A stretch of 64,000 bases of DNA from Aureispira anguillae (lineage in GTDB: Bacteria > Bacteroidota > Bacteroidia > Chitinophagales > Saprospiraceae), in assembly GCF_026000115.1 (NCBI RefSeq), contig NZ_AP026867.1, forward strand, positions 2,969,716 through 3,033,715, in the 5' to 3' direction. The notes beneath the pieces are model-generated. The model worked only from the letters and a program-made list of their open reading frames with translations, was not told the DNA's origin and did not search any database. Numbering within the stretch: the stretch's first letter is position 1; each line of letters begins with the position of its first letter. Shown piece after piece: positions 5,209 through 46,983 of this stretch. Made by a program: the position numbers and the translations under genes.

Positions 5209-6060
5209 CTATTCTATCCTTATTTCAACAACTTCTTTTTGCCCTTCTTTGCTCATTTCTACCCAATAGATCCCTCTTACAAGATTCTCCAACATTAAAT
5301 GGTGTCTTTTAAACGGTTCGAGGTAAGCATCCTCTTGATAAACCAACTGCCCGTGCAGATTTATCACACGAATTTTCCAACGGGCACTTTCGCTTTGACT
5401 TTCAACAAAAAAAGCACCTTTACTGGGGTTTGGGAAAACCTGAATAACAGTACCTTTAGCTTCTATTTCATCAATTTGACTAGCAATTGATTCGGTCAAC
5501 ACAAAGGAAGCTGTTGCACTAAAATCATCCCCTTGTGTAGACCCTGAACCATTAGAAGCTAATCCTACCCCACTAATCGTAATCACTCCTGTTCCTGCAA
5601 CTGGTGCTCTCCACGATGCACGAAATAGCCCCAAGTCATTCAATCCTTTGTGTTCAACAAACGACCTGCCATTTGAAATCGTTGTAATCTGCGTGCTGTC
5701 GGTAGCAACAGCCAATAAAGTTCCTGCATTGGCGTTTAGTCCGTCCAGCAATACTGCCTGCATCCCATAACCACTAGGACTTCCATCGCTACTAACCGTA
5801 AATTCCAATGTATAAACCTGCCCTGGTATATAAGAAGTTACCCCAAGACCTGTAGCATCCTTAACTTCAATACTCAGCTGAGGATTAGGAAATAACCCTG
5901 CACTCGTATGACAATATCCTCCACAGGTTCCCGATGATCCTGGCGTTCCCGTACAGTCCATTTCACCATTGGCAGCACGACCACCAGAAGCGCTTTGCAA
6001 AATAAGCATTGAACTCGCTACCATCAATATGGCAATTATTATTTTTATCTTCATCTTCAC
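5209..6060 (-). CDS. Secreted protein with T9SS C-terminal sorting domain (paralog 1)
   Basis: Signal peptide MKMKIKIIIAILMVASSMLILQSASG. C-terminal ~80 aa (VFPNPSKGAFFVE...IYWVEM...) matches the Por_Secre_tail pattern. N-terminal region carries TCGGYCH (a CxxxCH motif). Confidence 0.65.
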   Translation of the reverse strand: MKMKIKIIIAILMVASSMLILQSASGGRAANGEMDCTGTPGSSGTCGGYCHTSAGLFPNPQLSIEVKDATGLGVTSYIPGQVYTLEFTVSSDGSPSGYGMQAVLLDGLNANAGTLLAVATDSTQITTISNGRSFVEHKGLNDLGLFRASWRAPVAGTGVITISGVGLASNGSGSTQGDDFSATASFVLTESIASQIDEIEAKGTVIQVFPNPSKGAFFVESQSESARWKIRVINLHGQLVYQEDAYLEPFKRHHLMLENLVRGIYWVEMSKEGQKEVVEIRIE

Positions 6061-6158: not shown

Positions 6159-6195
6159 TGTATTTAAAATGTGGTTATCTATTTATGTTTTTTTT

Positions 6196-7038
6196 CTAAA
6201 AAACCATCATCTGTTGTGTTTGTTGTACACCATTACTTTTTATGGTTATCATATACGTTCCTGGTATCAAATTTTTGCAGTAAATAGAATGTGTACCAAA
6301 GCCATCTACCATAGCGGATTCTGAATAGACGGTTCTTCCCTGCAAATCCAATACATCAATGGTAATAGCACCAGCAGCTCCTCTATTTTTTACCTTAAAG
6401 CTACCGTCATTGGGAATTGGAAAAATATCAAAGTTATCTGTTTCTAAATCCAATAAATCAACAGAATTTGTAAAACTTTCTGTCAGAACCAGTTGGGTTG
6501 TTGGTGAAGTATTGTCTCCTGAAGTAGAAACGCCATCAACAGCTATTCCAATGCCATAAATGGTTACCGCTCCTGTCCCCAACATTGGAGCTTCCCAAGT
6601 AGTAACAAAACGCCCGTCCAAACTTGTCCCATCATGTTCTATAAATTCTCTACCGTTTGCAAGAGTTGCCAATTGAGTATTTGGGGTTGATGTGAGCACC
6701 ATATCCCCTGCATTATTATTAGAAGAATCTAGTACAACAGCTTGCATTCCATATCCCACAGGAGTCCCTCCACTACTTACAACAAATTCTAAAGTGTAAG
6801 TATTGCCAGGAATATAGCTGGAGACAACTGTTCCTAAATTATTCTTTACGATAATTTCAAGCTGAGGATTAGAAAAAGCTCCTTGATTAGGATGGCAAAG
6901 GGTACAATCTGAGGGCAAAACCCCTGGCGATCCAGTTCTATCCTTTCCTGTATACGTGGCTGGTCCTCCAGAAACACTCTGAAGCATAAACATTAGGGTA
7001 GCTCCAACAAATAGAGCTGCTAAAAACTTTGTTTTCAT
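6196..7038 (-). CDS. Secreted protein with T9SS C-terminal sorting domain (paralog 2)
   Basis: Signal peptide, a CTLCH motif near the N-terminus, and a C-terminal Por_Secre_tail-like domain (FPIPNDGSFKV...GTYMITIK). About 85% identical to the 7329-8171 product. Confidence 0.7.
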   Translation of the reverse strand: MKTKFLAALFVGATLMFMLQSVSGGPATYTGKDRTGSPGVLPSDCTLCHPNQGAFSNPQLEIIVKNNLGTVVSSYIPGNTYTLEFVVSSGGTPVGYGMQAVVLDSSNNNAGDMVLTSTPNTQLATLANGREFIEHDGTSLDGRFVTTWEAPMLGTGAVTIYGIGIAVDGVSTSGDNTSPTTQLVLTESFTNSVDLLDLETDNFDIFPIPNDGSFKVKNRGAAGAITIDVLDLQGRTVYSESAMVDGFGTHSIYCKNLIPGTYMITIKSNGVQQTQQMMVF

Positions 7039-7279: not shown

Positions 7280-7328
7280 CATTTAAGATACGGCTATCTA
7301 TTCATGGCATTATTTTTATGTTTTTTTT

Positions 7329-8171
7329 CTAAAAAACCATCATTTGTTGTGTTTGTTGTACACCATTACTTTTTACAGTTATAATATACGTTCCTGGTAT
7401 TAAATTTTTGCAGTAAATAGAATGTGTCCCAAAGCCATCTACCATAGCGGATTCTGAATAGACGGTTCTTCCCTGCAAATCCAATACATCAATGGTAATA
7501 GAACCAGCAGCTCCTCTATTTTTTACCTTAAAACTACCGTCATTGGGAATTGGAAAAATATCAAAGTTATCGGTTTCTAAATCCAATAAATCAACACCAC
7601 TAGCAGGGCTTTCAGTCAAAACGAATTGGGTTGTTGGAGAGGTGTTATCGCCCGAAGTAGATGCGCCATTAACAGCCATTCCAACACCATAAATGGTTAC
7701 ATCTCCTGTCCCCGTAACAGGTGCTTCCCAAGTCGTCTTAAAAATCCCATTGCTACTTCTTCCACTATGCTCTATAAACTCTCTACCATTTCCAATAGTT
7801 GACAATTGAGTATTTGAGGTGGAAGTAGCAATCATATCTCCTGCATTATTATTAGAAGCATCTAAAGCAACGGCTTGCATTCCATACCCTACTGGGGTAC
7901 CTCCACTTGTTACCGCAAATTCTAGCGTGTAAATGTCACCAGGAACATAACTGGTAACCACTGTCCCTGAAGCATCTTTTACCGTAATCCCAATTTGAGG
8001 ATTAGAAAAAGACCCTTGGCTAGAATGACAAAGCGTACAATCTGAGGATAAGGCCCCTGGTGCCCCCGTTCTATCCTGTCCTCCCAATGCTGCTCGCCCT
8101 CCAGAAACACTCTGAAGGGTAAACATCAACGTTGCTCCAGCAAATAAGACTCCTAATAATTGTGTTTTCAT
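7329..8171 (-). CDS. Secreted protein with T9SS C-terminal sorting domain (paralog 3)
   Basis: Tandem duplicate of the 6196-7038 gene. Has a signal peptide, a CTLCH motif and an identical C-terminal sorting domain. Confidence 0.7.
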   Translation of the reverse strand: MKTQLLGVLFAGATLMFTLQSVSGGRAALGGQDRTGAPGALSSDCTLCHSSQGSFSNPQIGITVKDASGTVVTSYVPGDIYTLEFAVTSGGTPVGYGMQAVALDASNNNAGDMIATSTSNTQLSTIGNGREFIEHSGRSSNGIFKTTWEAPVTGTGDVTIYGVGMAVNGASTSGDNTSPTTQFVLTESPASGVDLLDLETDNFDIFPIPNDGSFKVKNRGAAGSITIDVLDLQGRTVYSESAMVDGFGTHSIYCKNLIPGTYIITVKSNGVQQTQQMMVF

Positions 8172-18959: not shown

Positions 18960-19916
18960 TACTGTAAGTTTTAAATTTAAGTGTTAATTAAAAACAAAAT
19001 AAGTATTGCTTTCGTGGGTGATTTTCGAATTTTAAATTGGTAATTTCCTAAAATTCGATACAAAACAAAGTCTTAACATTTAAATATCAGAATAATACGA
19101 CTTTACATATTCACTTTTTTTCTTTTTTAAAAAGTGTTCTTAGCCACCTCCAAATTGTTTTTTTTAAATCATTCGTTCTTATTCACTTGTCTTTATTTAT
19201 CCTTGGATTTCTTAAAAAATTCGCAGCTTACGATTTGGAATTTATTGGGTAGGATTTATCACTTAACTAAATGAGCGTTTGGCTAAAAATTTCTCACTTC
19301 ATTAAAAAACAATAATTCGTATTTTTTTATTCAAAAAATCGATACAGTTGGTTCTATTCAAAATAGGCTCAATAGTCGGTATATTTTGACTCCAACTCTA
19401 AAAAGCCCGTTTATTTTTTTTTATTTTAAAACGAATGTTCTACGCCATTTCATCCAGCTATTTAGCCCTCATCTAATGGCACCCATATCTTATTGAATTG
19501 TAACCGATAAATTATCTAGAAATGTATCTTTTTTTTTCATTTTAAGGTGGATATTTTGCCCAAATCAAAAACTTCCCTACCAACTTAATTGACAAAAAAA
19601 CAATATGTTATTAATTCAAATTAATGCTTTTAGCATTTTACTTTTTATTAAAAAAAAGTTTTCTAGTCCTAAATCATAAAAAATATAAACTGCATAAAAT
19701 GAGCAAAAAAAACATTTTTTTTGTTCTAATTTCTACTAGCCTTATCCTTCTAAGTTGTCTTCTCTAGCACTAATAGGGTAAAAACCTACCATCTTAAAAT
19801 AGCTCGATTAAACCCTTACTTTATTTAAATTGTTTTGTCCTCTACCTATCCTTTATTTTAAAATAACTTACATATTTCACAAAATTACTGTATTTTACGT
19901 AGTCTTTTTATAGCGG

Positions 19917-20160
19917 TAAGTAGATGGACAAAATTAGTAGTTTAAAAATTGGAGTATATTTTTTTCGCTAACGACTTGCAAAATGTAGCTTTAGCGGGCT
20001 AACTAAGCCTGCGACTTCACGCAGCGAGGCAAGTAAAGCGAGGCTTTTCAAGGAAGCCTAGCGGACAAAAGATGCTCACCACGTAGTCTCAGCACAGCTA
20101 ACTGATCTCACGAGCACTGCGAGTAATTTAATGTTAATTACTTTTGTCCATCTACTTATA
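19917..20160. repeat. MITE-like element with 17-21 bp terminal inverted repeats
   Basis: Left end gtaagtagatggacaaaattagtag (19917-19941). Right end acttttgtccatctacttat (20141-20160). The core taagtagatggacaaaa / ttttgtccatctactta is a perfect 17-bp inverted repeat. The ~200-bp GC-richer core sits inside 1.3 kb of AT-rich non-coding DNA. Confidence 0.55.
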
Positions 20161-20270
20161 AATCCCAATATTTCTCTTTTGATAAGAATCCCCCCCCTAA
20201 GCACTCAGTAATTATCAATAATTAGTATCACCAGAGATTCCTATGCATCTCACAATCAAGAACAAAAGCT

Positions 20271-22277
20271 ATGAAAACAATACTAACGATTATCTGTTTG
20301 TTATTTGTTGTTACACAAATTTATTCCCAAGGAGTCGGTATTGGAACAGTACCCAATGCTTCTGCCATGTTGGACGTAAGTGCTACCAATAGAGGCTTAT
20401 TAATTCCTAGAATAGCCCTGCTAAACACCTTAGATGGCAGTACCATTAGCAATGGTAATATTACCTCTTTATTGGTCTACAATACGGCTACGGTTGCTGA
20501 TGTTGTGCCTGGTTATTACTATTGGACGGGTGCAGTTTGGCAGCCCCTAGGGAATGATGCGGACCACGACATTACCAATGAAATTCAAGACTTATCTTAT
20601 GACCCTAATACAAACATCCTATCCTTAACCAATGATGCGAGCCCTGTTGATTTAACTGCTCTAAAAGATCAGGATTGGTACGAAGTGGGAGGCACCACTC
20701 AAGCCAACCATATCAACGATAACATATACACACAAGGCAATGTAGGAATTGGAACAACTAGTCCCTCCACCAAACTACAAATTGGTTCTGGCGCAGGTAC
20801 TTATAGAACTTGGATGGATTATGGAATCTATCTAGGAGATGATACAGATGGAATTTATGTTGGGGTAAAAGATGAAGGAGCAGATAGAGAAGATGCGATT
20901 ATTGCATGGGGAGATAACCCTGACGAAAGTTTACGTTTTTTATACAATCAAACTGGCTTGACCACTTCAGAGGAGCACATGAGAATCCAAGGCGGTTCTG
21001 GAAATGTAGGAATTGGTACGGCGATTCCAGCCACTAAATTACATGTTTATGATGAAGTAAATGGCGTGTTTACAGGAGCAATAATAGACAATAGAAAAAC
21101 CTATGGTGTAGGGACTGGCATTGATGAAGTAAGTAGATTGTCTCTTGCTCTTAGTGAAGCAGGAACCCCCAACCCACTTAATCGGGTCATGGGTTATATA
21201 GAAGCAGGAACGCATTCAGAAACCAACTCAACGGAAGGTTGGCTTAGCTTGGGAACAAGATCTGCAACTGTTGTAAGTGAGCGATTGCGGATTATTAATA
21301 ATGGTAATGTAGGAATTGGTACCCCAACTCCTAGCCAAAAATTACATCTAGAAGGCAATCAATACATGCATGATGCCAATCAAAGTGAACTTCATTTGGC
21401 TTCCGAAAACAATAGTTCTAACCACAGTGCCGATATTAGAATGTCTAATTTAACCTCTGGTAACGGCTGGTTAATTACAGAAGGAGCTTTAAATGCCAAC
21501 GATAATTTTACCATTCAATCTTTTAATAGTGCCAATCAGTACCATCAAAGGTTATACATCGATCACGCCACAGGCAATACAGGAATTGGTACCAATACCC
21601 CAACCAGCAAACTTACGGTAAATGGCGTACTAGAAATCAATAAAGTGAGTGATGTTAGTACGATTTATTTTACCAGCAGTGCCACTGAACCAGGTTATAT
21701 CCGACATAGTGGAAATAGCAACAATGCAGAAATGCGATTTGTTGCTTCTGACGACTTTGATGCAGGAAGTCCTGGTGATAAGTTTACCTTTGGGGGGGAA
21801 ACAGGAAATGTCTTTACTGAAGTAATGAGAATCCAAGGCAATGGAAGTGTAGGAATTGGTACTACTGCGCCTGCTCAACGCTTACACGTTGCTGGGAATA
21901 TTTTAGTATCTGGAACGATTAGTAGTTCAGACAAGAGATATAAAACGGGCATTACAAAACTAGAACATAGCACAGCCTTATTGGCACAAATTAATCCTGT
22001 TTCTTATCATTTTAATACTGCTGCGTTCAAACAAGGTCAATTCGATGACAAATTGCATTTTGGTGTAATTGCACAAGAGTTAGAAACAATTTTACCTAAT
22101 TTAGTTTATACAGATGAAGAAGGCTACAAAGCTGTTAATTACACCGATTTGATTCCTCTACTCATCAAAAGCAATCAAGAACAACAGGCTCAAATCAAAA
22201 AACAAGAGAAAAGATTAGCCCAACAAGAAGCTCAGATGGAGAAATTACTTCAAATGCTCAACGCTTTAAAGCAATAA
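20271..22277 (+). CDS. Tail-fibre-like secreted protein with C-terminal peptidase S74 intramolecular-chaperone (auto-processing) domain
   Basis: Signal peptide. Five copies of a ~90-aa repeat, each containing GN(V/T)GIGT..P..KL. C-terminal ...SSDKRYKTGITKLEHSTALLAQINPVSYHF...HFGVIAQELETILPNLV... followed by a coiled coil is characteristic of S74 chaperone domains of phage tail fibres and endosialidases. Confidence 0.6.
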   Translation: MKTILTIICLLFVVTQIYSQGVGIGTVPNASAMLDVSATNRGLLIPRIALLNTLDGSTISNGNITSLLVYNTATVADVVPGYYYWTGAVWQPLGNDADHDITNEIQDLSYDPNTNILSLTNDASPVDLTALKDQDWYEVGGTTQANHINDNIYTQGNVGIGTTSPSTKLQIGSGAGTYRTWMDYGIYLGDDTDGIYVGVKDEGADREDAIIAWGDNPDESLRFLYNQTGLTTSEEHMRIQGGSGNVGIGTAIPATKLHVYDEVNGVFTGAIIDNRKTYGVGTGIDEVSRLSLALSEAGTPNPLNRVMGYIEAGTHSETNSTEGWLSLGTRSATVVSERLRIINNGNVGIGTPTPSQKLHLEGNQYMHDANQSELHLASENNSSNHSADIRMSNLTSGNGWLITEGALNANDNFTIQSFNSANQYHQRLYIDHATGNTGIGTNTPTSKLTVNGVLEINKVSDVSTIYFTSSATEPGYIRHSGNSNNAEMRFVASDDFDAGSPGDKFTFGGETGNVFTEVMRIQGNGSVGIGTTAPAQRLHVAGNILVSGTISSSDKRYKTGITKLEHSTALLAQINPVSYHFNTAAFKQGQFDDKLHFGVIAQELETILPNLVYTDEEGYKAVNYTDLIPLLIKSNQEQQAQIKKQEKRLAQQEAQMEKLLQMLNALKQ

Positions 22278-38945: not shown

Positions 38946-39077
38946 AATCTTATATACTTATCGTTTTATTTTGTGTTTTAATTCCTTTCATCGCTACCCT
39001 AAAAAGGAATTTTAGCTTCAAAGAAGCGAGTAAGATAGTAGAAAAAAATCAATTTTTCTAACAAAATTCTGAGTACA

Positions 39078-39133
39078 GAACAAAATTAGTAGGTTAAAAA
39101 TTACTCGCAATGCTCGTGAGATCAGTTAACTGT
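39078..39133. repeat. Partial, inverted copy of the MITE-like element at 19917-20160
   Basis: acaaaattagtaggttaaaaatt (matches 19929-19951) is fused to ttactcgcaatgctcgtgagatcagttaactgtgctg, which is the reverse complement of 20088-20125 (cagcacagctaactgatctcacgagcactgcgagtaa) with 2 mismatches. Confidence 0.55.
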
Positions 39134-39151
39134 GCTGCTGCCTTATAATAC

Positions 39152-39625
39152 CTAGCGATTAAGCTGCTGCCTCAAAAAATTCACAACCTGCCGTCTATGT
39201 CTTAAAATATGAACAATAGCATGTTCCATCAATTGTTCAAAATCATAAGTCACCCCCCATCTTGTTTCAAATTTCCACACTTCGATTGCTTCATTAGACT
39301 TATAATAAATATCCTTAAAAACTAGCTCGGTATAGTCCAACATCGCATCAATTTCTACCATTCCCTCTTCAGGATCTTCTATTTTTTGGTCGTATTCCAA
39401 CCATTTGTCAGAACGAATAGACTGAATGTAATTCGCATAGGTATACCCCGACTGCACGATATGGAAGGTAAGACTTTGTATTGACCGACAATCCACATCC
39501 TTTGTTTCTTTGTCTACCACCTCAACAAACTGAGGCAGCGACAAACCACTTAATATTTCTTTGTATTCAAGCGCCGCTTTCTGATATTCATCCATTAGCG
39601 CTACCAACATTCCATTTTTTTTCAT
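39152..39625 (-). CDS. DinB/YfiT-like metal-dependent hydrolase-fold protein
   Basis: About 160 aa, four-helix-bundle DinB_2-like pattern with conserved His residues near the C-terminus (HAIVHILRHRRQ). Confidence 0.45.
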   Translation of the reverse strand: MKKNGMLVALMDEYQKAALEYKEILSGLSLPQFVEVVDKETKDVDCRSIQSLTFHIVQSGYTYANYIQSIRSDKWLEYDQKIEDPEEGMVEIDAMLDYTELVFKDIYYKSNEAIEVWKFETRWGVTYDFEQLMEHAIVHILRHRRQVVNFLRQQLNR

Positions 39626-39641
39626 CGTAAAAATTAAGGTT

Positions 39642-41906
39642 CTATTGTTCAAAGGAATCATACAAAGCCATCAAGACCCGTTCATGTGTCATGGGTGTAC
39701 TTAATAATCCTTTTGCATTGGGGTTAAACGCCTTAATGGCATCCGTAATGGCAAAATGCGCCCCAATTCCGTACATTAAAGGTGGTTCTCCAACTGCTTT
39801 TGATTTTAGAATTGCCAAATTAGAATGGTTGGTTTCTAAAAATTTAACATTAATTACTTTAGGAACTGAAAATACATCTGGCACCTTGTAAGTAGATAAA
39901 GCAGAAGACAATAAACGCCCCTCTTGATTGTAGCTCAATTCTTCCATGGTCACCCAACCCATCCCTTGAACCAAACCACCTTCTATTTGTCCTTTATCGA
40001 TCATTTTATTCATGCTCTGCCCAAAATCATGTACAATATCCACTCGATCAAATTCATAAATTCCTCGAATACAATCTACCGTTACTTCTGTAATTGCAGT
40101 ACCGTAAACATGATAAGCAAAAGGATGTCCCTTTTCTGTTGTTTTGTCAAACTTAACTCTAGGCGTTGCATAATGTCCCTTCTCTGACAACTGTATACGA
40201 GCGACAAAGGCATTGGTCACCAATTGTTGCCAAGACCAATCTGTCTTTTGACCATCAATATAGACCCATTCATCGTGAAGGCTGATCGTTTCAAGCTGTT
40301 CTAACTTAAATTGCTGTTGAACAAAAGTTTTTAATCGCAACAAAATAGCAGAACAAGCAATTTGGAGTGCCTTACCATTTAAATCTGCCCCTGCACTTGC
40401 TGCTGTAGGTGATGTATTGGCAACACGAGTGGTATTCGTAGTTTCAATTTTTATTCTTTCAGGTGCTATGGCAAAAGTTTGCGCTACAATCTGAAGCATT
40501 TTAGTATTTACGCCCTGTCCCATTTCCACCGCTCCAGTACTTACTCCAACACTTCCATCTTGATAAACATGAACCAAAGCACGAGCATGATTCATAGGGG
40601 TATTGGTAAAGGAAATACCAAAACAAATTGGCATAACAGCCAGTCCTTTTTTGAGCGTTGTATGTTGAGCATTAAAAGCCGTAACACGGTCACGCATTCC
40701 CTGAAGATCAAAATCAGCGGCTGCTTGTTCCCATGTTTTTAGTGCCTCACAATTTTCTACAATTTGCCCATAGGAAAATTCATCTCCATCTTGTAATAAA
40801 TTTGCCTTTTGAATCAGGGCTCTATCTACTCCTATTTGCTCCGCAGCTAGTGTAATTGCCGCTTCCATAACAAATTTTCCTTGGGGGCCTCCAAAACCTC
40901 GAAAAGCAGTATTGGGAGGCAAATTAGTTCGACAGCTTCTAGCTGTCAACCGAGCATTGGGTACAAAATAAGCATTGGTAGCATGAAACAAGGTGCGCTC
41001 CAATACCGCAGGCGACAAATCTGCTGCAGCTCCTGCATTTTGATAAAAATCGGCTTCATAAGCAATAATTTTAAGTTGCTCGTCCAAACCAATTTTAAAA
41101 TCAGAAGTATAGGGGTGTCGTTTGCCTGTCATGCGCAGATCTTCTTCCCTATCCAATATCAATTTAACGGGCTTTTTGCTCAAAAACGCCCCCAAAGCAG
41201 CCAAAACCGCAAAGGGAGTTGCTTGATCTTCCTTTCCTCCAAATCCACCACCTAAACGCCGAACATCTACTTCTATTTTGTGCATCGCCAAGCCCAAAAC
41301 CCTAGCAATTCCCCGTTGAACCTGTGTTGGTCCTTGCGTAGAAGAAACCACCCTGATGCAATCATTTTCAACAGGAAAAGCATACGCCCCCTGTCCCTCT
41401 ATATATAAATGTTCTTGACCATTGCAATCCGCTCTTCCTTCCACAATATGAGCACATTGCTCCCAAGCCTTATCTACTTCACCAATTTTGAAGGTTCTAA
41501 CAGGGCCAATAAGTTCCCCCTTTTCTGCTGCCTCCCTAGGATCTACAATAACAGGTAATTCCGAGGCTTCCATCACAATTGCCTTTATGGCTTCATGCGC
41601 TATTTTTTTAGAAGTCGCCAAGACCAAAGCAATCGGTTGTCCTCTAAAATGTATGTCCCCGTCAGACAAAGCAGGTTCATCAGGGAAAATTCCTCCAATT
41701 TGATTTTCTCCAGGAATATCCTTATGCGTAATAATATGTTTTACTCCAGCTATTGCTTTAGCTTTGGTTAAATCTAATTTTGTAATTTTTCCATGTGCCA
41801 ATGGAGCATCAAAAATTGCGGCGAACAATGTCCCCCCTAAAATTGGCAAATCATCCACATAAATGGATTCGCCACGAGTATGTGTATAAGAATCTATATT
41901 TTTCAT
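39642..41906 (-). CDS. xdhB: Xanthine dehydrogenase molybdopterin-binding subunit
   Basis: 754 aa. Aldehyde oxidase / xanthine dehydrogenase a/b-hammerhead and Moco-binding motifs (…GGGFGGKE…, …RGFGGPQG…, …AVGEPP…). Confidence 0.85.
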   Translation of the reverse strand: MKNIDSYTHTRGESIYVDDLPILGGTLFAAIFDAPLAHGKITKLDLTKAKAIAGVKHIITHKDIPGENQIGGIFPDEPALSDGDIHFRGQPIALVLATSKKIAHEAIKAIVMEASELPVIVDPREAAEKGELIGPVRTFKIGEVDKAWEQCAHIVEGRADCNGQEHLYIEGQGAYAFPVENDCIRVVSSTQGPTQVQRGIARVLGLAMHKIEVDVRRLGGGFGGKEDQATPFAVLAALGAFLSKKPVKLILDREEDLRMTGKRHPYTSDFKIGLDEQLKIIAYEADFYQNAGAAADLSPAVLERTLFHATNAYFVPNARLTARSCRTNLPPNTAFRGFGGPQGKFVMEAAITLAAEQIGVDRALIQKANLLQDGDEFSYGQIVENCEALKTWEQAAADFDLQGMRDRVTAFNAQHTTLKKGLAVMPICFGISFTNTPMNHARALVHVYQDGSVGVSTGAVEMGQGVNTKMLQIVAQTFAIAPERIKIETTNTTRVANTSPTAASAGADLNGKALQIACSAILLRLKTFVQQQFKLEQLETISLHDEWVYIDGQKTDWSWQQLVTNAFVARIQLSEKGHYATPRVKFDKTTEKGHPFAYHVYGTAITEVTVDCIRGIYEFDRVDIVHDFGQSMNKMIDKGQIEGGLVQGMGWVTMEELSYNQEGRLLSSALSTYKVPDVFSVPKVINVKFLETNHSNLAILKSKAVGEPPLMYGIGAHFAITDAIKAFNPNAKGLLSTPMTHERVLMALYDSFEQ

Positions 41907-42266: not shown

Positions 42267-43661
42267 TTAATCAAATAAGGTAGGAAAAAAGCTTCTATAA
42301 TGTGCGATCATCAATTGACGTAACAATAGACGTTTGTAAGCTACAGAGCCCCTAACATCTGCAATGGGGCTTATTTCTTTTTGGGCAATTTCCAAAGATT
42401 CGTCTAATACTGATTTACTAATTGTTTTTCCAATAAAAAATTGGGCTGTTTTGGCAAGGTATTTTGGTACAGGAGCCACCCCACCAGCAGAAATTCCAGC
42501 TTTGATGACTTCTCCTCTAGTATTGCATTCTATGCGTATAGCAGAATTAACAGAAGCAATATCCAGATAAGTTCGTTTACAAACTTTTTCAAAATTAAAA
42601 TAATGAGTTGATCGTGGCAATTCAAAATTTACTTCTTGCACAAATTCATCTGCTTTTAAATCTAGGGTTTTGTACCCCTTAAAAAACTGCTCTAGCGGCA
42701 ATTCACGTAGGGCACCATTGGCATTCAAAACAATATTAGCATTTAAAGCCAAAAGAAAAACCGCTAAATCACCAATAGGAGACGCATTAACCAAATTGCC
42801 TGCAATTGTCGCCATATTGCGAATTTGAAGGGATGAGATCAAATTAAAAAAATGATCTGTATTAGGGCTTAAGGATTGAATTATCTCAGATTGTTTGAGT
42901 GCTTCGGTAGCGGTTGAAGCGCCAATATGGCAATAGCCGCTCGCCTTCCAGATTCCCTTTAAGTCATTTCTGTTGTAAGCATGAACAATGTCTTCTGAAA
43001 ACATTTTTTGGGGGCGTTGAACATACAAATCTGTTCCTCCTCCTACCCAAATCGCTGACGCAGGAATTGCATCAGGCTTGGTTATAGGACTAGAATCTTT
43101 TAACTTTTTTGCTATTTCTAAAAAATAATTGGGTAAGAACCGATGTTCGACCAACCAACCTAATTTATCTTTATGATTTTTTGCAACCAACTGTTGAACA
43201 ACATATTCTGCGGCTCTTTCGATTGATTTGTATCCCGTACAACGGCAAATGTTGCCAGCAATAGCCAATATTGCTTGATCCTTTGTTATTTTTCCTTCAG
43301 ACAACGCCAGTCCACAAAGAGACATAATAAAGCCTGGTGTACAAAAACCACATTGTGTTCCTCCTTCGTCTGCCATAGCTTGCTGCACCACATTTAGCCC
43401 TTCAATATTGACTCCCTCTATGGTAACAATATGCCGACCTTCTACATTTCCTAAGGGCATAAGACAGGAAGTTACTGATTCATAGATTACTTTATCATTT
43501 TTTAAGGTCCCAATCAAGACAGTGCAAGCACCACAATCCCCTTCTCTACATCCCAGCTTAGTCCCTGTAAGACATTGTTGATACCGTATAAAATCCGCCA
43601 AGATCATCCCTGAGGGCAAATCTGTCTCTATAAGTTCCTGATTCAAAACAAATTTCATCAT
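42267..43661 (-). CDS. xdhA: Xanthine dehydrogenase small subunit (2Fe-2S plus FAD-binding)
   Basis: N-terminal plant-type and second [2Fe-2S] cysteine clusters (CREGDCGACTV, CGFCTPG, CRCTGY). The FAD-binding CO-dehydrogenase flavoprotein domain follows. 464 aa, as in two-subunit bacterial XDH. Confidence 0.85.
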   Translation of the reverse strand: MMKFVLNQELIETDLPSGMILADFIRYQQCLTGTKLGCREGDCGACTVLIGTLKNDKVIYESVTSCLMPLGNVEGRHIVTIEGVNIEGLNVVQQAMADEGGTQCGFCTPGFIMSLCGLALSEGKITKDQAILAIAGNICRCTGYKSIERAAEYVVQQLVAKNHKDKLGWLVEHRFLPNYFLEIAKKLKDSSPITKPDAIPASAIWVGGGTDLYVQRPQKMFSEDIVHAYNRNDLKGIWKASGYCHIGASTATEALKQSEIIQSLSPNTDHFFNLISSLQIRNMATIAGNLVNASPIGDLAVFLLALNANIVLNANGALRELPLEQFFKGYKTLDLKADEFVQEVNFELPRSTHYFNFEKVCKRTYLDIASVNSAIRIECNTRGEVIKAGISAGGVAPVPKYLAKTAQFFIGKTISKSVLDESLEIAQKEISPIADVRGSVAYKRLLLRQLMIAHYRSFFPTLFD

Positions 43662-43889
43662 ACTATATATATATCTTTATTTTTTTTCGTAAAAATTATA
43701 ATAAAAAAAACAATTCTAACGTTTGTTATAATATAGTTAATAAAATCATAAATTGTATTTTTAAAACTATATTATTTGTAATATTCATTTTTTTTTTGTA
43801 GATTAGTAGTATACGATTACCCAAGTATATTAAATAACTAATTAAAGTAAATTCAACTAATAAAATATGTCCCTTTAAGTCTAAAACTC

Positions 43890-44000
43890 ATTTTCTCCAT
43901 TCTCAAGAACTTCTCTATACTGAACTTTTCATCTTGAATCGTCATTAAATATTCCCTCATCTTATAATGAGCATTTGTAATATCTGAAGTGTCCTACCCC
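43890..44000. repeat. Direct repeat copy A (~110 bp) in AT-rich intergenic island
   Basis: Shares ttctccattct.a.aacttctctatactg…aatgag…ttgtaa.atctga.gt with copy B. About 75% identity. Confidence 0.5.
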
Positions 44001-44254
44001 TAGATACTAGTGTATTCTAGCACATGCAACCGAACAATTGTATTTTACATTCTCCATGAATTCTAATGATTCACTAAATTATATTTTTTTACATTATATT
44101 TTTTGTGATATTATTATTTTTTAATTACATTAGCATTATCTTAATATTCTGATCAGATATTGAAATACTACTATAAAACACTAAAAAACTAATTCAATGG
44201 AAAATATTATACGACAAAACTACACATTAGCAAAATTTACTTTTGACTAATTCC

Positions 44255-44352
44255 AACTTTCTCCATTCTTATAACTTCTCTATACTGTATATTTTCGCTG
44301 TACATTACTACTCATTTTCAATGAGTTACTTGTAACATCTGACGTACTTTAC
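44255..44352. repeat. Direct repeat copy B
   Basis: See copy A. Same orientation, ~365 bp downstream. Confidence 0.5.
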
Positions 44353-44808
44353 AAAAATAAAAACCACCTATTTTTTACATTTTACACTTTTGTTACTAAA
44401 AAGTTTGTGTTATAACCTCTAACAAAATATTTTTTGTACAGGTTGTTTTCACTTGGCTTTTATAACATAGGATGATTGTTCCCACAACGATCACTAGGGA
44501 TTGTTATATCAAAAAATAAATCTAATTGGGTTTATTTTCAGATGATGGTCACTAATAGATTATACTTTCTCCTTTGTGTATTTAAGTCACGGTGAGCATA
44601 AGGTTTTCATTTAACTTAAAAGATTTACTCTTAACATATTATAGCATTAATTTTCTGAAAACCAGAAAATTAAAACCGTCCCGTAATGCCTATAGGTAAG
44701 TATCTATGGCTGTATAATAAAACCAAGAGTTCTTTAAAAGTAAATAAAAATTGGATAATCACACAATCTTATTTTTTTACAACCCCCTTTTTTAAAGAAA
44801 ATTGCACC

Positions 44809-45993: not shown

Positions 45994-46407
45994 TTAGTGT
46001 TCAGCCTTTGCTATTTGTTCTAGCAACCAAGCGACTGCATCTTCCCTTTCTGTAAAAATTTTAACAGGTGCCTGTCCTTTTACTTTATTGGACGAAGCAG
46101 ATTTTCCCGTTAACTTCAGATAAAGATTTCCTACTACCCTTGAACCAAATGAGGTAGTCAATAAAGCACTAGCTACTTCCCCTATTTCAGATTTTTCATA
46201 ACATTCTAAGACTTCTTTACTGATATAGTTGCTAGGCATGTTACTCAACATAGCTCTAGGTTTCCCATCTACAGCTTTTTTTAACATTGCTATATTTTCC
46301 TGAGCTATCTCTACCGTATCTGCTTCCTTCCAATCTTTATTATTTTCTAGTTCTACAATACCATTTGAGTTAACAGTAATTGTTAGCGCCCTTGTTTTGA
46401 ATTGCAT
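45994..46407 (-). CDS. Small conserved protein, paralog 1 (possible STAS-like fold)
   Basis: 137 aa. About 75% identical to the neighbouring 46573-46983 product. The C-terminal ...KGQAPVKIFTEREDAVAWL pattern is reminiscent of STAS/SpoIIAA-like domains (weak). Confidence 0.45.
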   Translation of the reverse strand: MQFKTRALTITVNSNGIVELENNKDWKEADTVEIAQENIAMLKKAVDGKPRAMLSNMPSNYISKEVLECYEKSEIGEVASALLTTSFGSRVVGNLYLKLTGKSASSNKVKGQAPVKIFTEREDAVAWLLEQIAKAEH

Positions 46408-46572: not shown

Positions 46573-46983
46573 TTATCTACTACTTGCAATCTGCTCCAAA
46601 AGCCACTCAACAGCATCCTCCTTCTTCGTAAAAATTTTAACAGGTGCCTGTCCTTTTACCTCACTAGATTTGGCTGACTTTCCTGTTAATTTTAAATAAA
46701 CATTTCCTACCACTTTGGAACCAAAGGAAGTAGTCAATAGAGCACTAGCGACTTCACCAATCTCAGCTTTATTATAGCATTCTAGCACATCCTTGCTCAT
46801 ATAAGTGCTAGGCATGTAACTCAACATAGCTCTAGTTTTTCCTGCTACAGCTTTCTTGATCATAGCGACATTCTCCTGAGCGATCTCTACCGTGTCTGGT
46901 TGTTTCCACTCTGGGTTTGTCACCAGTTCTATAATATCATCTGGTCTAACAATAATCGTCAAAGCTCTCGTTTTGTATTGCAT
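46573..46983 (-). CDS. Small conserved protein, paralog 2
   Basis: 136 aa, tandem duplicate of the 45994-46407 gene. Confidence 0.45.
   Translation of the reverse strand: MQYKTRALTIIVRPDDIIELVTNPEWKQPDTVEIAQENVAMIKKAVAGKTRAMLSYMPSTYMSKDVLECYNKAEIGEVASALLTTSFGSKVVGNVYLKLTGKSAKSSEVKGQAPVKIFTKKEDAVEWLLEQIASSR

Follow-up and report, generated by a model that had tools for sequence, protein, structure and literature searches.

The window analysed here, a stretch of 64,000 nucleotides, was placed on the 7.58-Mb chromosome of Aureispira anguillae (Saprospiraceae). An ORF-free stretch of 1.3 kb in this window (18960-20270), bordered by a 170-aa ORF on the minus strand on one side and a 668-aa ORF on the plus strand on the other, houses a small element of 242 bp (19917-20158, plus strand). 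The genes upstream of the element encode T9SS-type secreted proteins. The downstream ORF encodes a tail-fibre-like protein with PTL_trimer and Peptidase_S74 domains and begins 112 bp after the element. The host is a predatory bacterium of filamentous growth, and the element lies in the leader or promoter region of this tail-fibre-like surface gene. On-off switching of predation genes by insertion sequences is known from the genus Aureispira (bioRxiv 10.1101/2024.01.29.577165). Judged by Pfam marks, none of the genes called up to ~7 kb away from the element in either direction encodes a recombinase or transposase, and no transposase was found in the window as a whole. The tail-fibre-like gene itself contains five copies of a 46-nt repeat (20735-21887) with a spacing of 264-303 nt, which encode a recurring GNVGIGT...KL segment.

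The element is bounded by terminal inverted repeats, reading TA-AGTAGATGG at the left end and CCATCTACT-TA at the right end. The two arms (19917-19936 and 20139-20158, both given on the plus strand) are complementary at 19 of 20 positions and are separated by 202 nt. Their outer 17 nt, TAAGTAGATGGACAAAA and TTTTGTCCATCTACTTA, form a perfect repeat (19917-19933 with 20142-20158), and the complementarity continues imperfectly out to ~34 nt. No other perfect 17-mer inverted repeat with a spacing of 50-400 nt is present in the window, and in 200 shuffled windows the mean number of such repeats was 0.005 per window. The original prediction had described a perfect 17-bp terminal inverted repeat enclosing a GC-richer core within an AT-rich region devoid of ORFs. 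We could verify the repeat, together with its extension to 19 of 20 positions, as well as the AT-rich 1.3-kb setting and the richer core, in which the G+C content is 46-52% compared to 17-33% around it. When followed across 19950-20150 the G+C fraction was 0.44-0.52, with flanks at 0.17-0.33.

Inside the left arm follows an AT-rich sub-terminal stretch (19934-19965, plus strand), which includes TATATTTT at 19955-19962. This octamer is similar to the Bacteroidota -7 box TAnnTTTG, as judged by eye only, and from this we infer that the stretch might have a promoter role. The GC-richer core (19966-20128, plus strand) is built of short hairpin-prone modules, and three similar modules of the form CACG...AG...TAA start at about 20017, 20078 and 20108. 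At 20078-20101 (plus strand) the sequence reads ACCACGTAGTCTCAGCACAGCTAA, a degenerate copy of the motif ACCACGCAGTAGCA-N-CGCAG-N'-TAA that matches it at 20 of 24 positions. A second short module, GATCTCACGAGCACTGCGAGTAA (20104-20126, plus strand), is common to the element, to the second locus in the window and to one contig of a Rikenellaceae MAG. A possible solo terminus, TTTTGTCC-TCTACCTA (19832-19848, plus strand), lies 68 bp upstream of the left end and matches the terminus at 15 of 17 positions with one gap; the window has two other matches that are equally loose, and only the proximity to the element suggests this assignment.

Stops break all six reading frames through the element, and a coding remnant was ruled out because no frame is open. 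No tRNA or tmRNA matched at the element, and Rfam gave nothing there either, at the gathering threshold for the whole window or at a relaxed threshold for 19300-20400. A consensus scan of the plus strand detected no sigma-70-type promoter and no terminator inside the element. An origin from a phage or plasmid was also rejected, since BLASTN searches of phage and plasmid collections with the element and the motif returned chance matches only. With its small size (below ~600 bp), its lack of coding capacity and its terminal inverted repeats the element has some of the features by which MITEs are recognised. TA can be read on both sides, as GG[TA]AGTAG...CTACT[TA]TAAAT; TA is its own reverse complement, so that a TA target-site duplication is here inseparable from a 2-bp extension of the inverted repeat.

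The fold of the whole element on the plus strand had a z-score of -5.9. When the core was folded alone the z-score was -1.1 for the plus strand and -0.5 for the minus strand, which is no better than shuffled sequences. We concluded that the signal of the whole-element fold stems from the terminal repeat. It had been proposed that folding of the core might reveal a small RNA, and nothing was gained for this proposal. A full-length palindrome was likewise rejected for the A. anguillae copy (z -0.5). By eye, the plus strand at 20122-20145 shows a weak AT-rich hairpin with a T run after it.

A second locus in the window, 39067-39137 (minus strand), lies between a DinB-like gene and puuD and contains a related sequence of the right-end type. 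Positions 39098-39137 match the reverse complement of 20090-20129 at 38 of 40 positions, and 39080-39102 match 19928-19950 at 22 of 23. These matches had been noticed in the original prediction and were correct, while its explanation, a copy at 39078-39133 from which the core had been deleted, had to be rejected. In a gapped alignment the entire segment 39067-39137 is colinear with the right end of the element (72 columns, 78%). It has a single decayed terminus, AGTACA-GAACAAAA, and no second terminus was found beyond 39137. The element's own two arms are imperfect inverted copies of each other over ~34 nt, and given this mutual similarity the simplest reading of 39067-39137 is a one-ended remnant of a sibling copy. 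Its sub-terminal stretch is then, as far as the alignment tells, one that keeps the left-arm spelling of a once longer inverted repeat.

We compared the element's position with that in Aureispira sp. CCB-E, Aureispira sp. CCB-QB1, one ENA assembly and several Logan contigs, using the orthologous tail-fibre and thiolase genes. The left flank outside the element (19852-19910, plus strand), ending 6 bp before it, has an orthologous counterpart ahead of the tail-fibre gene in other Aureispira and gave a score of 86 for three congeners, with shuffles at 34.6 +/- 4.2. The element compared with the orthologous position in three congeners scored 26, which is below the shuffle mean of 31.4, and thus has no counterpart there. 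As the left flank is kept and the element is absent in the congeners, we concluded that the element is specific to the A. anguillae lineage at this position. The right flank scored 45 against 34.5 +/- 5.2 for shuffles and was alignable only at a short AATCCCCC run and at the start-codon region. Its divergence is too great for a base-exact empty site or a target duplication to be read, and insertion is therefore indistinguishable from replacement.

Further copies were searched for with a 21-base core pattern. In the genome collection, which may lack this genome, no copy was detected outside the window in A. anguillae or its close relatives. The one match, with ~0.3 chance matches expected, was at the contig end of a Rikenellaceae MAG (L005, 6436-6493), where AGCGCAGC and GATCTCACGAGCAATGCGAGTAA reproduce the two-module layout of 20090-20126 in the window. 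A GCGCAGC hairpin is located just upstream on the same contig, and for this reason the match probably represents a true relative, in a taxon far from Saprospiraceae if the contig was binned correctly. The metagenome scan for a core of the A. anguillae type gave 0 matches, as did the core patterns in viral contigs; the 16-mer terminus had 91 matches in viral contigs, all of them single chance matches. Logan contigs from two read sets, A. anguillae's own being DRR408736, stop exactly at 19821, and the sequence resumes with a contig that begins inside the element, at 20111. Because these breaks are off the termini their cause is ambiguous (other copies, paralogous flanks or mixed alleles), and they give only a hint of further copies.

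Relatives of the element were found in other Aureispira genomes. When ~170 kb of congeneric sequence was searched with the element by BLAST, a match of 41 nt (78%) was obtained in the xdh-puuD spacer of CCB-E, which is the locus orthologous to that of the second copy in the window. In a local alignment of the element with this spacer the score was 35, with shuffles at 18.7 +/- 2.3. The spacer contains two inverted copies of a ~64-nt unit. In another strain (L112) the unit is single, lies beside a DinB-like gene and has the opposite orientation to that in L107; this DinB-like gene is orthologous to the one beside the second copy in the window (57% identity). The presence of the gene between xdh and puuD was observed for A. 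anguillae (39152-39661 in the window) and for one Aureispira strain (L112, 2434-2937). In CCB-E, QB1 and the ENA assembly it is absent and two inverted motif-bearing units remain (L107, 5779-6000). On a contig from a more distant Aureispira (L114, 1939-2010) a different palindromic element of ~72 nt occupies the same position upstream of puuD. The spacer upstream of puuD seems to collect hairpin elements.

CCB-E and QB1 also share a unit of 186 bp, here called e2 (L107, 12913-13098), which is bounded by TAAGTAAtcgttCAGAAAAAAcTATA and an imperfect inverse of it. As a whole e2 is an imperfect palindrome (z 8.9), its termini start with TAAGTA, and its sub-termini are AT-rich like those of the element. 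The local alignment of the element with e2 scored 31, with shuffles at 18.1 +/- 2.4. Contigs of two independent Logan assemblies stop after exactly 30 nt of e2, with counting started at the T of TAAGTAAT. Contig ends at k-1 nucleotides (k = 31) inside the terminus are what a repeat boundary there would produce, and units of the e2 type are therefore multi-copy in these assemblies. Strain-specific extra ORFs in L099 and L102 were considered as transposases and rejected, as they do not have the appearance of one.

The units of CCB-E share the sequence ACCACGCAGTAGCA-N-CGCAG, with the consensus present at 5891-5914 and 12997-13020 of L107. A metagenome collection was scanned for the 19 fixed bases of the motif, and 25 loci were returned. 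In ~17 independent contexts the variable position N and its counterpart N' formed a Watson-Crick pair 15 times (G-C, C-G, A-T and T-A), a G-T pair once and a mismatch once, the sole mismatch belonging to a GC-rich coding match. TAA follows the motif in 23 of the 25 loci. The covarying N' and the trailing TAA were both outside the search pattern, and we concluded that the 25 loci are not chance matches. The motif reads as two putative mini-hairpins, AC[GCA]GT and A-N-C[GCA]G-N'-T. It is identical across contigs with a G+C content of 33-57%, mostly 33-42% and in a few cases 55-57%. Its sites are intergenic and the adjoining genes unrelated; its orientation agrees with that of the downstream gene in ~9 of 13 contexts, a bias that is not significant. 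No long-range pairing partner of the motif was consistent across the loci. Rfam at a relaxed threshold showed nothing at the motif in 12-20 related loci, BLASTN detected no motif in the phage and plasmid collections, and a literature search for the motif string returned unrelated primers only. The A. anguillae copy at 20078-20101, when taken alone, is a weak match to an HMM of the motif (E = 12). In this copy GTAG is kept and the hairpin that comes next has a non-GNA loop.

The units that carry the motif differ in their ends. In the metagenome Ga0114967 a 390-bp element, TA-TTTTGAGGTGCTG ... CAGCACCTCAAAA-TA, is present at no fewer than nine (at least 9) contig ends (L120, L122, L124, L127-L129, L132, L134 and L138), with the motif ~100 nt from the left end. 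A 268-bp motif unit in L115 has a perfect repeat of 22 nt and ends in TT/TA. L125 and L137 contain motif units of ~183 bp between TACTCCGTT and AACGGAGTA, and compensatory changes were observed between the two in a long internal hairpin. In L131 the motif lies inside a hairpin of 123 nt. The palindrome z-score was 6.6 for L131 and 6.9 for L123. TA stands at both ends of e2, of the units in L125 and L137, of that in L131 and of the Ga0114967 family. Between organisms the outer inverted repeats of the motif units are unrelated in sequence, while the motif is kept.

The element looks like an ordinary kind of small non-autonomous mobile repeat. That it is such an element had been part of the original prediction, and much of what was found agrees: it is small, non-coding and bounded by inverted repeats, a fragment of a sibling is present in the window, it is absent at this position in congeners, and it has relatives elsewhere. 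A cognate transposase was not seen. On balance we favour, with a confidence that only just earns the word probable, a MITE-like repeat that is mobilised in trans and probably inserts at TA, the A. anguillae copy being an old one with a decaying module. It would be spread, now or at one time, by transposition in trans, by a transposase that is encoded elsewhere and recognises the termini. Insertion would probably occur at TA, like that of MITEs derived from IS630/Tc1-mariner elements and of the Correia elements. The 24-nt double mini-hairpin of the relatives may be a functional module that is read as single-stranded DNA or as RNA. With its motif already decaying, the A. anguillae copy may be an old insertion that no longer moves. 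If transcription of the downstream gene starts in the conserved upstream sequence, its 5' leader would gain ~240 nt and a 17-bp stem from the element. One pattern argues against a MITE: the inside of the units is conserved and their termini are unrelated across organisms, which is the opposite of a usual MITE family bound by its transposase. The units might form an undescribed class of small intergenic elements spread across Bacteroidota, defined by the 24-nt double mini-hairpin and not by the termini, with the A. anguillae copy as a decaying member. We hold this to be a possibility, albeit a doubtful one. The motif would here serve as the handle for a conserved enzyme acting on single-stranded DNA or RNA, which either mobilises the units or is exploited by them, and the outer repeats would be free to differ.

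Other explanations were weighed against the MITE-like repeat. GNA tri-loops are the form of very stable DNA mini-hairpins, and both C[GCA]G hairpins of the motif are of this form. This would suit a REP/REPIN-like element, in which folded single-stranded DNA is processed by an HUH tyrosine nuclease (RAYT / TnpA-REP) and not by a DDE transposase; the 24-nt motif, GTAG and then a mini-hairpin, would be the recognition site, and the outer repeats would merely close the fold. The stem after GTAG has the covarying pair (15 Watson-Crick, one G-T and one mismatch in ~17 contexts), several relatives are imperfect palindromes over their whole length or doublets of inverted units (e2, L131 and L123), L125 and L137 differ by compensatory hairpin changes, and the motif is kept where the outer repeats differ between organisms. 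In Bacteroidetes, moreover, genes of RAYT subclass 2.6 are reported to have 'atypical secondary structures' at their flanks, copies of which occur at other places in the genome (PMC6006769); this also speaks for such an element. We nevertheless consider this explanation unlikely, as an HUH-Y1 ORF is absent from the window and from ~140 other loci, and the motif is missing from the REP sequence table of the same publication (PMC6006769). The stems of 2-3 bp are far below canonical REP stems, for which a GC-rich hairpin of at least 7 bp is asked, there is one motif per unit instead of one in both arms, and the A. anguillae core is not palindromic. REP sequences are normally species-specific, whereas contigs of 33-57% G+C all carry this motif in identical form.

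The element could also be the gene of a small RNA, or act in cis as a 5' leader for the tail-fibre-like protein, with the inverted repeat as the closing helix and the motif as a functional loop region. The good plus-strand fold of the full element (z -5.9) is consistent with this, but it comes from the terminal repeat alone, as the core gave z-scores of -1.1 and -0.5. Similarly, the -7-box-like sequence at 19955-19962 and the hairpin with T run at 20122-20145 were seen by eye on the plus strand, where the consensus scan showed no promoter or terminator inside the element, and the co-orientation of the motif with the downstream gene in ~9 of 13 contexts is not a significant bias. In RNA, the single G-T of the covarying position would correspond to a G-U pair. 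Rfam matches were absent at the gathering or relaxed threshold for the window and 20 related loci, the element is missing upstream of the same gene in congeners, and the motif is degenerate in the A. anguillae copy. Taken together this makes an RNA function of the element decidedly improbable. Least probable of all, and by our judgement very unlikely indeed, is an inverton, an invertible promoter segment in which site-specific recombination between the repeats would turn the tail-fibre-like gene on and off. The element has the size of an inverton and inverted repeats at its ends, it immediately precedes a surface-type gene, and a related unit has opposite orientations in the strains of L107 and L112. 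However, a recombinase is absent among the genes called within ~7 kb on each side, and the element was seen in one orientation only. Mixed orientations would put contig breaks at the inner edges of the repeats, and the breaks observed, at 19821 and 20111, do not fall there. A second one-ended copy elsewhere does not fit an invertible segment either.

Compared with known systems, the element would be closest in behaviour to Correia elements and RUP-type MITEs and closest in modular build to BOX elements. Correia elements (CREE/NEMIS) are MITEs of Neisseria with a length of ~100-250 bp, terminal inverted repeats of ~20 bp and TA ends; they are intergenic and often part of 5' leaders, in which the repeat folds into a long stem once transcribed. 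The A. anguillae element resembles them in being small, non-coding and intergenic, with inverted ends of ~20 bp and TA on both sides. It differs in that it has no sequence similarity to them and that the internal motif shared across taxa has no Correia counterpart; many copies are, furthermore, a feature of Correia elements. With RUP and other MITEs derived from IS630/Tc1-mariner elements it has in common TA-compatible termini, small size, inverted ends and the lack of an own transposase. The defining tie of MITEs of the RUP type is the match of their termini to those of a resident IS630-family element; the termini of the related units are mutually unrelated. The likeness to REP/REPIN sequences consists of the intergenic location, the hairpin formation, the multiple copies of some relatives, the GTAG head and the paired changes that keep the hairpins, and some relatives are inverted doublets. 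The difference lies in the 2-3 bp stems by the GTAG, the single motif per unit and the conservation of the motif across distant taxa, as opposed to co-evolution with a RAYT. BOX elements of Streptococcus pneumoniae consist of modular hairpin-prone boxes, are intergenic and lack perfect terminal inverted repeats. The element is comparable to them in its build of short hairpin-prone boxes and its intergenic location, but shares no sequence with them and has perfect terminal inverted repeats.

The motif is of interest in its own right, being identical across base compositions, having a covarying pair and no Rfam family, and residing inside units with unrelated inverted ends. If upheld in complete genomes, this would point to a conserved recognition site with no known enzyme that binds or processes it. 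Apart from the element and its relatives, two further kinds of repeats were observed in the window. A direct repeat of ~30 nt (ttctccattct.a.aacttctctatactg) is present at 43895-43925 and 44258-44290, in an AT-rich ORF-free stretch of 1 kb (43661-44686). Tandem gene duplications were found at 6182-6481 and 7315-7614 and at 46008-46307 and 46584-46883, with DNA identities over 300 nt of 94% and 78%, respectively.
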